Below are positions 29,538 through 61,113 of a stretch of 64,000 nt of DNA, piece after piece. The first letter of the stretch is position 1; every line of letters starts with the position of its first letter. The DNA comes from Eledone cirrhosa (Eukaryota). Position numbers and translations under genes: made by a program. The notes under the pieces were generated by a model. That model searched no databases, was not told where the DNA came from, and worked only from the letters and a program-made list of their open reading frames with translations. Where the stretch lies: positions 64,046,001-64,110,000 of the forward strand of contig OZ024741.1 in the NCBI GenBank assembly GCA_964016885.1, given 5' to 3'.

Positions 29538-30480
29538 TATAAAGGTTAACATATACATAAAGTTATAGATATATATACGTTGCAACTGGTCACTTTTAAG
29601 CTCTATGAAGAATTAATAAATTAAAAAATCAGAGCATTATATCATAAATCATGTCTTTAGAATCATCAGATAATAAAATATATACTATTTCTTCTTCTAA
29701 TTAGCATAATTAACCATATAAAAAATAATAGGAGCATTTATTCTTATAGCTTGTTATGATTGATTTTTTATATGGTTAATTATGCTAATTAGAAGAAGAA
29801 ATAGTATATATTTTATTATCTGATGATTCTAAAGACATGATTTATGATATAATGCTCTGATTTTTTAATTTATTAAATCTTCATAGAGCTTAAAAGTGAC
29901 CAGTTGCAACGTATATATATCTATAACTTTATGTATATGTTAACCTTTATATTTAATAATCTCCCAATAGGTTGAGATTAAATTTGGCGATATTTGGCTG
30001 CGCTTTCTAGTAGCAAGCCTACCCGCCGTAAGCAACCAATCACATTCTTTCTCTCTGGCTTGAACACAGCCACATAGCGATTTTTAGCCATTTTTTAATC
30101 TAATTTTGGCGGGATCGGATTGAAAAACTAGATGTCTGATTTTGAGTTTGTCTCCCGATGAATCCTAACTCAGGACATTCCTATTATTTGAATGTCCAAA
30201 ATAAGGAAGAAACCATGGTAGAGATATAATTACGGTATGTGCGCATTTCTTCTAAGTTTAATTTTACAACTAATTGTGTATGGTTGATGGTATATTTAGT
30301 CAGTTTCTACATGCTGTCGAAATGTTGGATAAATACTCGACTGAGGCCGCCGCGAAGAGGCTACGTTCGATTATTTGTCGGAGATTTCCCCATAAGAGCA
30401 TTTATTCTTATAGCTTGTTCTGATTGATTTTTTATATGGTTAATTATGCTAATTAGAAGAAGAAATAGTATATATTTTAT
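29538..30480 (+). mobile_element. Non-coding HHR element: ~189-bp fold-back (29538-29726 / 29763-29951) and an ~85-bp terminal direct repeat (29728 / 30392, period 664 bp), in (TA)n
   Basis: Repeats read directly; no credible ORF. Confidence 0.85.
30149..30226 (+). ncRNA. Type I hammerhead with CCGATGA (U4C) core
   Basis: tgtctc/gagata stem I; tcct/agga + ggacattc/gaatgtcc stem II; GAAA C(CATG)G TA. Confidence 0.75.
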
Positions 30481-30532
30481 ATATATATATATAGAGAGAG
30501 AGAGATTTACATTAGTATCATTATAAAAAAGA

Positions 30533-30862
30533 TACCAAGTTTCCGTCGTCGAGAACGCACCCCAATTTTGACAACCCAAAATCTGAAAAACTATAATAAA
30601 CGTAAAAATAAGGTCCCGGCATTTCGGCTCTTGTTACCTAATGTTTTACGATATTTTGTTTATTAACTACTTTCACTAAGTATAATTTATACACTTGATT
30701 AAGAGGTCATTACAGTTCAGATTGCCGTCTAGCATAGATAATTTTCCTCTGTGGTTAGGATATGCCTATGAAAAACGCAACCTTCGGTCTCCAGGACGCA
30801 TGGTAGATTTTCGAGACATATTTTAGGAAAAAATAGCCTCTTCGACGCCAGGAAATACGGTA
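30533..30862. mobile_element. Possible old Tc1/mariner-type MITE
   Basis: Imperfect TIR taccaagtttccgtcgtcga vs reverse complement taccgtatttcctggcgtcga. Confidence 0.3.
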
Positions 30863-31329
30863 TTTTCCACGTCTTAGAAGAATTACGTTGTGCTACACAG
30901 ATATAGTTCGTCGTGTGATTGTACTTAGAGGTATTGCATAGGGGTTTTATTTCATATGTTGAAGTTGGTGGCTTACTAGTATTAGATAAATATCGGAGTT
31001 AGGAATAACTAGAACTTTGGAGTTGGCGCACAACTCTATTCAGCAGCTGATATACATTTTCTTCTGCTTTTTTCTCGGATGACCTTGTCAGTTACTAGAG
31101 CTGGAAAAGTATAATGTCCGTATGCTGGATATTATTATATACTATATTATGTGTATATTACTCTATGATAGTAGATGAATCACTACCTCCTTACGGATAA
31201 CTGATGTTGAACACCAGGTCTGAACACAGAAAAGCCGAGCTCCCACTGTCATCGTCTCCATCTCTCTCGCCGTCCCCATCTCTCTCGCCGTCTCCATCTC
31301 TCTTGCTGTCCCCATCTCTCTCTATTATG

Positions 31330-31903
31330 GGCAAATGGGGTCCCACGTGCTGGCCACCCACGGCCCCGGCGGACAGAATGGAGAAGGCGTTTCGTCGGAG
31401 GATGGTAAGAGCCATTCCATCTCGCGAGGCTCACACCTGCGGCTAGCCAGCTCAGCGCCTATGGTGGTAAGTAGGTAGGTAGACCTAGGGCCAAGGACAC
31501 CAGAGGTCACCACTGCTAGGGGCTCGACTGCAAACCTGTCAGAGAGCGGCCGATACTTGGAAAGTTTACCCTCCTCAGCCCGAAGTGCAGCAGAACCTGG
31601 GTTAGTCGCAGACTGCGCGAGGGAGGTTGCCGCTGGAGAATGTGTTGTTGCAAGTGGCATCTCAGACGAGGGGTTTAACACTGCGGAACGGGAAGATGAT
31701 CATGCCGTCTGGCCTATTGTCGCACTCTCAGTCCACCCCCACCCCCCACCCCCCGGCTCGAGCTGGGAAGGGAAGCCTGCAGCATCCAAGCCATGCTTTA
31801 TGACTTCGTTGAGAACATCATGGCGTGGAAGGCAGCCGGCACTGTAGCGACAGGGAAGCGAGTGGAGGCGGAAAGAGTCCAAGGTGGATCCGCAGAGACA
31901 TTT
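31330..31903 (-). mobile_element. CRE-clade non-LTR retrotransposon 3' fragment (CCHC + restriction-like endonuclease)
   Basis: CLCG..HSLPC..RHDVLNEVI..LEP, AEEGKLSKY, PLAVVTSGVLG, ILRRNAFSIL. Confidence 0.8.
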
Positions 31904-58291: not shown

Positions 58292-58410
58292 TGTGAAGGC
58301 GTGTGGCTGATTGGTTAGAGAACTGGATTCGCAATCGTGGGGTTGTCAGTTCGATTCCTGAGCCGTGCGATATTATGTCCTTGGGCAAGACACTTTATTT
58401 CACGTTGCGC
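58292..58410 (+). mobile_element. tRNA-derived head + CORE-like domain of the second SINE family
   Basis: tggctgattggtt A-box, agttcgattcc B-box, tgtccttgggcaagacactttatttcacgttg. Confidence 0.7.
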
Positions 58411-58662
58411 CTTTTACCTGGAGTTGCGACCAATAGATAGTATTAGCAATCGGAAAGACCAACGGAAACATTGTTTCCTCGGTCCGATTTGACGAACGTC
58501 GATCGACTTTTATTATATATATATACATAAGATTCTTACACACTTTATTATATGTCACAAGCGTTACATAGGATATAAAATCACAAAACTACTCCATAAA
58601 TCCTTAACGAAATGTTAAAAATTCAGAGCAATTACAGCAGCTTGCATTACTATTATAAACTA

Positions 58663-60016
58663 CTAGCAGAATGGCCCGGCGTTGTTCGGGCTTCTAAACA
58701 TAGATTTGCATGTTTATCCCTCCTTTCTGAAACAGTACAGAGAAGTACAGAATGCCCGGGGATGGTGTCTACATTTTGCGCTTATAAAAGAAATTCGTCG
58801 TAGATTACCAGGGGTTTAACTTAATTGGGTGCCTGAGAGTAAAATGTTCAACCCACGAAAGCCAAGACGATAGGGTTAAGTAAAAAGGCATTCGACAAAC
58901 CGAACATGTATTTGTTCTGCTATGGTACTATGAAAGCAATTGTTACAGAGAAGTAAGCGTGTGGGACTGCAGTGGTGGAGAGCATGAAGGAATTTAGTTG
59001 GATACTTTTAAGGTTATAAAATCTACCCAATCTGATAAAGACCGAACTGTTATATCGGATGCCGAACGCTTCGGAGTTACTATTGGGGTCACCATCAACA
59101 ATTTCAAGGGATGTACATTTAAGTAGGGATAATATAGTCTATAAAGAGAGGTAACTCTTTCAAAATACTAAAGAGTTGTCTCTCTTGAACATTGTAGACA
59201 AAATAGCCGAACTGACAAAAAGGGCTTAAAGTTTTAGTGAAAGAAAACGCCTTTAACAACAGAAAATTGAAAGATAAAAGCTGCAGTTAATATCTTTAGA
59301 CCGCAAGGAATATATAAATGAAAGTTTGAAGTCAATCGGAGTAGAAATGTAGTGACCTACATTCCGCGGGCTCACATACATTCTCTGTGCGTGATTTGGC
59401 TCAGTTCAGCCAATCAGCGCCAGTAGAAGAGGATGTATCCCTACGCGCCCTGGGAAAGAAATTTCCCGCGAAGATTTGAAGAATCTCTCTCTTGTACCAG
59501 AAACTTCGAGCCAGCAACACGCATAATGTAACGGTGAGATATTGCACCCTAGCCTCGCTGGCTTAACGGCGCAATGGCACATTCCCTTTTGTAACCTCTT
59601 TTTATCTGTAACTTCAACCATATAAGTTAACAAACATAGTTTGTACTACATCAAAAATAAACATACATTTCATCTCTAATTTCTGCTGTTGAAATCATTA
59701 TTATGTTACTCGTGTCTCAATAACATCTGTAATCCATGCTGCCGGAATTGGCGACCTGACGAAAGGAATATTGTAAATACTTAGATGGTAAATAGATCGA
59801 GGGACCTTCCTTCACGTCTATGTCGACAAGATAATCCAACGAGGATACTATCACTTACCACACTGGCAACTAACGACCATCAATCATCTACCCTGTTAAA
59901 ATGGCGACTTCACAACATTCACTTCAACCCTGCTAAAGAAATATGGATTTATATAGATTTTTCCAAAATTAGGACACACACACACAGACAACTTCAGTTT
60001 TATATATATGTATAGA
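58663..60016 (-). mobile_element. Non-autonomous Helitron, ~1.35 kb
   Basis: Minus strand a|TCtatacatatatataaaa ... cccgaacaacgccggg hairpin ... CTAG|t. Confidence 0.75.
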
Positions 60017-61066
60017 TGATAAATAAACATATTTTTAAAATTACGTATTGAATGAGTGAAATGAATTCTCTATTATATGTAAACATAGAAATGCATATAT
60101 GTATTTACATGTTTATTGAAAACAGAAATATTTTCGCTCATACATTTTTTGCGTGGACACATTAATGATAGTAATTCAAGAGGCACTTTATACAATTCCA
60201 TGCACACTAACAACATATGTGAAAATATATAATACACTTGCATAAGCATATGCATTTATGTGTGACTGTCTCTCTGTCTGTCTCTGTCTTTGACTCTCTG
60301 TCGCTCTCCTCTCTTTCTTTCTTCTATTTCTTTTTCGGCTTACTCTCACTCTCTCTCTCTCTCTCTCTCTGTATATATATATATAATATATACATATTTG
60401 TGTGTGTGTGTGTGTGTGTGTGTGTGTGTGTGTGTGTGTGTGTGTGTGTGTGTGTGTGTGTGTGTGTGTGTGTGTGTGTGTGTGTGTGTGTGCGTGTGTA
60501 TGTGTGTGTTTCTGTGTTTGTGTCTCCAAGTACGTATGTATTGTATTTGTATATATGATATAAATATACGCACATCGATACACACACACAAACATGCACA
60601 TATCAATATAAATAGTGGTAGAAAGATGGAGAAATGTATGTATGTATATATGTATGTATATATTTATGTATGTATATGTGTATGTATATATATATATATG
60701 TATGTATGTATGTATATATGTATGTACGTATGTATGTACGTATGTTTGCAAATGCATCGAAGGCACTTAAATACATATATTAATTTAATGGCAGTATTAA
60801 ATTGGTAGATATATTCTTATTACTATATATATATATATATATATATATATATATATATATATATATATATATATATATATATAGTAATAAGAATATTTAT
60901 ATTTATATATGTTTGATACAACTATAAATATGGAGGGTAGTACTAAGTACTAAGAACATCTTTTAATTCCTGACTCTCCACATGTTAACTATGACACTAA
61001 CAACAATTATGTACCCTAAATGTTCTAAATGACTAGGATTTTAGTAGCATGTTTCGACATTCCCTA

Positions 61067-61113
61067 TGCTCCTATGATTCCAGACTTCCCTCTGGAAGAA
61101 ACAATTGTCAGCA
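61067..61113 (+). ncRNA. Hammerhead relic (core CCTATGA) in a solo cassette between (TA)n arrays
   Basis: tgct/agca, ttccaga/tctggaa, GAAA C(AATT)G TC. Confidence 0.65.

Follow-up and report, generated by a model that had tools for sequence, protein, structure and literature searches.

The window analysed here is a stretch of 64,000 nucleotides (nt) from Eledone cirrhosa (GCA_964016885.1, contig OZ024741.1, positions 64,046,001 to 64,110,000, forward strand), a genome of 3.0 Gb that is rich in (TA)n. Three sites in it, one in each of three dispersed repeat families (A, B and C below), are minimal type I hammerhead ribozyme motifs whose helix III is palindromic, and all three carry C instead of the canonical U at core position 4. 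In two of these families C4 is the inherited family state; at the third site it is sporadic. The features concerned are as follows, numbered from the first letter of the window.

29534-30480, plus strand: family A insertion, just over one 664-nt non-coding unit (29728-30480) with an inverted piece (29534-29726)
30149-30226, plus strand: family A minimal type I hammerhead; C3 30155, C4 30156 (sporadic U4C), GAAA 30209-30212, palindromic helix III, cleavage position A17 30220
40400-40773, unstranded: family B fold-back insertion, a 5'-truncated copy and an inverted copy, within (TA)n
40454-40548, minus strand: family B hammerhead, left inverted arm; C3 40541, C4 40540, G8A lesion, helix III intact
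40604-40697, plus strand: family B hammerhead, right arm; C3 40611, C4 40612 (family consensus), GAAA 40680-40683, one helix III palindrome base lost
60912-61155, plus strand: family C, the 5'-truncated 3' end of a candidate Hydra-clade-like Penelope element, between two (TA)n tracts
61067-61113, plus strand: family C hammerhead; C3 61071, C4 61072 (family consensus), G5U lesion 61073, GAAA 61098-61101, palindromic helix III, C17 61109

The heptamers CCGATGA (30155-30161), CCGAGGA (40611-40617) and CCTATGA (61071-61077) lie where an earlier note on this DNA had placed them, and that note was also right that both arms of the 40611 site carry CC, since the left arm (C3 at 40541) reads CCGAGAA on the minus strand. 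The type I order of helix I, core, helix II, GAAA, helix III, UH and helix I is present at every site, with helix III palindromic; the palindromes are 8 nt long in families A, B and C and in family D, a sister of C described below. The folds had been called otherwise well formed, which needs three corrections: the copy at 61071 has an additional G5U that is rare in its family (position 5 is T in 2 of the first 100 among 593 matches), the right arm of the family B site has lost the C after GAAA, so that its helix III palindrome is incomplete, and G8A in the left arm disrupts the C3-G8 pair. Because of these extra lesions the window copies of B and C are probably dead. A descriptor scan of the window picked up 30155 and 61071, complete in their helices, in the helix III palindrome and in UH; the 40611 motif escaped it, owing to a weak helix II base and the lost base, and was confirmed by alignment to family B. 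The descriptor gave 320 matches in real sequence against 1 in one shuffle (244 sources, 967,605 nt). The three families had been described as unrelated, and their sequences are, but B and C have the helix III palindrome in common.

The state of position 4 was read from genome pattern searches with N at the test positions, in which the first 100 places come in genome order and are not ranked by similarity; exact patterns underestimate the family sizes, the first-look candidates numbering 1,181-1,336. For family A (316 matches), positions 4-5 were TG in 98 of the first 100 places and CG in 2, the window copy being one of the two. The family A consensus satisfies the canonical core including U4, and C4 at 30155 is thus a sporadic change in a U4 family. 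For family B (190 matches), C4 was found in 94 of the first 100, with positions 4-5 distributed as CG 83, CA 8, TG 5, CT 2, CC 1 and AG 1. Position 4 of family C (679 matches) was C in 89 of the first 100, T in 9, and G and A in 1 each, and U4 copies amount to 111 of all 679; with C4 fixed (593 matches), position 5 was G in 93, A in 3, and T and C in 2 each. Family D, with 4,164 motif matches, had CG in 98 of the first 100 and CA and TG once each, so that C4 was present in 99. Together with the tree described below, these counts show that C4 is an inherited family state in B and in C with its sisters D and E, and that the real signal is two C4-consensus families among the three sites, the third site being sporadic. 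The consensus motifs of B, C and D differ from the canonical core at U4, which is C; they are core variants of the minimal type I Penelope hammerhead and not canonical members.

These counts bear directly on the explanation that the C4 of all three sites arose by private mutation or assembly error within U4 families in decay. Just such a mutation is what we found at 30155, and the other private lesions of the window B and C copies would suit this explanation; C4 nevertheless predominates genome-wide in B, C and D, which already refutes it for B and C. Furthermore, no other letter reached 5% at position 4 in contigs of four public runs (three organism codes), a weak observation because only one run had real depth. 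As a general account of the three sites it is extremely improbable. The earlier note's suggestion of a natural C4 variant class, which it had proposed to check against the family consensus, accordingly survives for B, for C and for C's sisters, and falls at 30155, where the consensus is U4.

That note had also argued that a T-to-C change creating a CpG runs against the usual direction of decay. The argument is only partly right: copies, once inserted, do lose CG to TG and CA, but T-to-C changes also occur sporadically, as in 2 of 100 family A places. The U4 copies of family B fit CpG decay, because the CpG sites of that family other than core position 4 show C>T and G>A alike (10 of each in 285 cells). 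In family C, TG is commoner than CA, partly owing to a side clade rich in U4. We also observed that the U4 copies of family C are dense on small contigs, with 46 of the first 100 on contigs C17-C27 compared with 8 U4 copies among 81 family matches on contig C1; this enrichment may reflect stronger CpG decay there.

What carries the motifs differs between the families. Family A is a non-coding unit of 664 nt that contains one type I hammerhead and is often repeated in tandem (period 664); its longest stop-free frame is 65 codons. A Poseidon-like partner was considered for it but could not be shown, since the candidate frame (locus L183) lies on the opposite strand and begins at a microsatellite. 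Family B has a body of at least 1.5 kb in which no open frame was found. It shares the habits of Penelope-like elements, being 5'-truncated, targeting (TA)n, forming inverted 5' copies and ending at two fixed 3' positions, and we read it as a putative non-autonomous Penelope-like element. No partner frame with reverse transcriptase (RT) and endonuclease was seen in 8 extended B loci, and two apparent links proved to be separate insertions. A Neptune-like partner suggested by locus L181 was discarded after eight copies with long open frames proved to be without the B hammerhead. For B', a sister of B at 73% likeness, the Hydra-like frame in locus L331 owns a separate U4 hammerhead and B' stands behind a (TA)n tract, so this pairing was likewise rejected. 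Most family B copies are about 170-200 nt long and barely contain the ribozyme; in 16 of 27 copies (L121-L150) the 5' ends cluster 28-35 nt upstream of C3, which is not the cleavage position.

Family C represents the 3' end of an element that encodes RT followed by a C-terminal endonuclease, a domain order that excludes the Naiad clade, which had been a candidate; frames were broken in the C copies examined. The same protein search found family D, its sister at 81% identity, with many open frames of 832 codons. In six D loci (L199-L204) the frame is flanked on either side by a hammerhead with CCGAAGA, and locus L200 has two 100%-identical pseudo-long terminal repeats (pseudo-LTRs) of 1,369 nt placed 4,198 nt apart, other copies being 97-99% alike. 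Judged from its sequences, family D is a young element that has spread recently. Its protein is a single frame with RT followed by a C-terminal GIY-YIG-like stretch between pseudo-LTR flanks (motifs assigned by eye); the translation has RWR in place of RWK, DKT and a CxCX5C linker, with no CCHH. A Pfam search of the D protein gave no RT or GIY-YIG match, and precomputed PF01541 and PF00078 annotations are present on a few homologues. Families C and D, both inserted in (TA)n, thus look like Hydra-clade-like Penelope elements, a call that rests on motifs and not on an RT tree with reference sequences. The 3' ends of families B, C and D cluster relative to C3, at +135 and +162 in B, at +87 with a spread from about +100 to +125 in C, and at +85 and +306 in D; these clusters resemble the two-start tail signature reported for Penelope-like elements.

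The history of C4 was followed in a tree of 143 copies built with position 4 masked. C4 occurs in clades C, D and E, and U4 copies are scattered singly through the main C clade. Among metagenome outgroup loci, 35 of 77 gave a hammerhead match; the 41 matches comprise 39 with CT at positions 3-4, one with TT and one with CC, the last lying inside a coding match in locus L296 and set aside as probably due to chance. U4 is present in 27 of 27 metagenome Hydra-like elements whose hammerhead lies downstream of the endonuclease, and in two relatives from the Eledone genome itself. In the published collection the Hydra rows of Craig et al. 2021, File S2, read ctga in 26 of 26, a set gathered with a CUGANGA-type descriptor (PMC8557442; this and the other papers cited below are drawn on for the parts available to us). 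Because the outgroups have U4, C4 is derived. Across 38 rows of B', CTGAGGA occurs in 28, CAGA in 5 (one duplicated region), and 5 are unparsed, one of which reads CCGAGGA. From these comparisons, B and C/D/E most likely acquired C4 independently. The fetched loci fall into 28 clusters, of which 20 were listed, 3 with a C4 majority and 17 with U4; the loci were chosen for these families and do not represent a genome census. A metagenome Hydra-like element (L312:1938, plus strand) has a different, covariant core with U3-A8.

Conservation of the core was assessed on the majorities of six subfamily groups, comprising 46 copies picked from the tree; these majorities are 56-85% identical over about 200 nt. 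C3, G5, A6, G8, A9, G12, A13, A14, A15.1 and U16.1 are invariant across the six groups, and C4 is kept in five of them; N7, N17 and loop 2 (4 of 4 positions) vary, as do 86 of the 129 positions in the flanks. In 21 aligned copies position 17 is C, A or T and never G, 91% of helix cells are paired, one helix II pair changes from G-C to A-U in 8 copies, and helix III has altered on both sides without losing its palindrome. Visual comparison of B with B' likewise shows paired changes in each of the three helices. Self-cofolding returned a double hammerhead for 6 of 8 sequences in a first set and 1 of 2 in a second, including A, the B consensus, D and the window copy of C; it was not obtained for the right B arm of the window. 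With an E cut-off of 10, the Rfam hammerhead models matched neither C4 copies nor a U4 control copy, and no hammerhead stood among the 150 of 298 window matches listed. Since the U4 control was missed as well, C4 is not the reason for the Rfam miss. The earlier note's suggestion that standard descriptors overlook C4 cores applies to fixed 'cuganga' strings such as those of Craig et al. 2021 (PMC8557442), which would miss these motifs.

This pattern of conservation also bears on whether the C4 motifs still cut. They might have ceased to do so, with the fold or the DNA retained for protein binding, RNA-RNA pairing or as a promoter element. In the Anolis Poseidon element hammerhead cleavage is dispensable for insertion in vitro and no reads end at the cut site (PMC11167929), Naiad elements thrive without canonical hammerheads (PMC8557442), and the copy ends in the Eledone genome do not lie at the cleavage position, all of which would agree with a fold that does not cut. 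Nevertheless, the invariant set coincides exactly with the catalytic set, position 17 varies among C, A and T without ever being G, as expected under selection for cleavage, and C4 hammerheads cleave in other systems. We therefore regard loss of cutting as improbable.

In our preferred reading, to which we give fairly good but not high credence, C4 is lineage-inherited in B and in C, D and E and sporadic at 30155, the ribozymes likely self-cleave as dimers, and the change was likely tolerated. Two hammerheads of a tandem transcript would exchange strands via their palindromic helix III and be cut after H17, perhaps with the help of the element's own protein, as reported for the Anolis Poseidon element; C4 dimers would cut too, probably more slowly than usual. 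C4 probably spread by founder effect from master elements, with purifying selection preserving the core and C4 leaving sufficient activity, and after insertion CpG deamination would yield the scattered U4 and A5 copies. Published cases are consistent with such activity: U4C in peach latent mosaic viroid (PLMVd) is reported to leave self-cleavage in place, by secondary citation (PMC9608096), and the CCGA ribozyme of zeta virus ZV1 cut at the expected site (bioRxiv 2026.09.16.752053). The Anolis hammerhead cuts only with protein, and uncut RNA is the main insertion substrate (PMC11167929); for this reason a slower core would be easily tolerated.

Several observations weigh against this reading. 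U4C is reported to lower in vitro activity considerably, yet to permit viroid infection (Perreault 2011, PMC3088659), pairwise mutagenesis of a type III hammerhead gave low activity for single CUGA changes (PMC9901934), and minimal Penelope-like hammerheads are already weak and are without the loop contacts thought to rescue core variants (PMC4209133). The six subfamily groups are mutually related and were picked from the tree, so their invariance is no independent test. Covariation is modest: 3 of 16 pairs changed on both sides, which 311 of 500 shuffles matched, although the score exceeded that of 497 of 500. The double hammerhead was not the minimum-energy dimer for a C consensus copy (L196) or for B' (L327), and the first pair of helix II is mismatched in the family consensus of A (A-A), B (C-A) and D (A-G); T-T at this pair is common in published Hydra motifs (PMC8557442). 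Lastly, one side clade of C has U4 in 11 of 12 copies, in a sample enriched for U4.

Alternatively, C4 may have been favoured and not just tolerated, if a slower or protein-dependent ribozyme spares uncut RNA as insertion template and still allows some processing. Decay of CpG continually regenerates canonical U4 (the 111 of 679 copies in C), yet C4 is kept in five of six subfamily groups; the youngest and most abundant family, D, has kept it; two lineages of one genome acquired it; and the Anolis element provides a precedent for unprocessed RNA as main substrate and for cutting that depends on protein. Set against this, 17 of the 20 listed clusters have U4, the U4 side clade of C exists, and drift alone would predict two origins of the best-tolerated core change. 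We hold an advantage of C4 to be possible but rather unlikely. The same doubt attaches to its extension, in which Penelope-like elements would tune their ribozyme, two lineages having independently fixed the attenuating U4C despite CpG decay, the element's own protein switching cleavage on and uncut RNA being saved as template.

Tolerance and advantage of C4 both touch on why Penelope-like elements retain a hammerhead, given that the ribozymes are weak, one is protein-dependent and cutting is dispensable for insertion in vitro. A young C4 element with an intact frame, together with its U4 relatives and natural revertants, offers a natural pair for asking what amount of cleavage transposition requires. 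In addition, thousands of motifs in this genome escape any search that relies on a fixed CUGANGA string, and therefore some elements considered 'hammerhead-less' may carry C4 cores.

The window holds further repeats of related kinds. Two inverted pairs, 43903 (minus)/46458 (plus) and 48699 (minus)/52280 (plus), are canonical U4 minimal hammerheads, and the second pair encloses remnants of a Hydra-like frame at 49908-51333. Two copies of a further hammerhead family lie at 7199 and 6657 on the minus strand, one canonical (CTGACGA) and one with G5A. A Neptune-like Penelope fragment at 33880-35111 (minus strand) shares 93-95% identity with a family (L186-L193) whose open frames span about 1,217 codons. 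The repeats of that family gave no hammerhead by descriptor; by eye they contain a candidate that has U4 and a helix III of very few pairs. Positions 20022-26651 (6.6 kb) are taken up by a degenerate triplet array, (CAC/AAC)n, whose strand skew is extreme.

The U4C change itself is not new, being known from viroids and zeta viruses. In the literature on U4C/CCGA hammerheads and Penelope-like elements, so far as it was accessible, we found no report of C4 fixed in an animal retroelement lineage; the key survey of these motifs (Lunse et al. 2017) and the 2014 supplements and preprints could already record it. Family A resembles the non-LTR retrozymes (PMC7229834, bioRxiv 2026.07.22.740005) in that it is tandemly repeated and non-coding and has a single type I hammerhead in every unit, but its unit of 664 nt is longer than the quoted 150-450 bp, and its consensus is plain U4. 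The motifs share with the minimal type I hammerheads of Penelope elements (PMC4209133) the long helix II, the short helix I and the palindromic helix III that requires a dimer, as well as placement at the 3' end or pseudo-LTR, inverted pairs and thousands of solo copies; in the parts of that paper available to us, the core variant described is instead U3-A8, and a C4 family consensus is not mentioned. Family D is like the Hydra clade (PMC8557442) in its RWR (RWK-like) motif, DKT, CxCX5C, C-terminal GIY-YIG-like domain without CCHH and (TA)n insertion, and by eye its protein blocks resemble Hydra-1_Obim and Hydra-1_Amil; it differs in its 4.2-kb unit, the usual length being under 3 kb, and in having C4. 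The same core change (CCGA) occurs in viroid-like hammerheads, namely a PLMVd variant, CtaHVd-LR1 variants, ZV1 and betaviroid-like RNAs (PMC9608096, PMC3088659, bioRxiv 2026.09.16.752053). The ribozymes of those RNA replicons are monomeric type III or full-size, and the change is found in sequence variants or in single genomes, whereas here it sits in a minimal, dimer-dependent ribozyme and is fixed across a long-lived, high-copy lineage that integrates into DNA.

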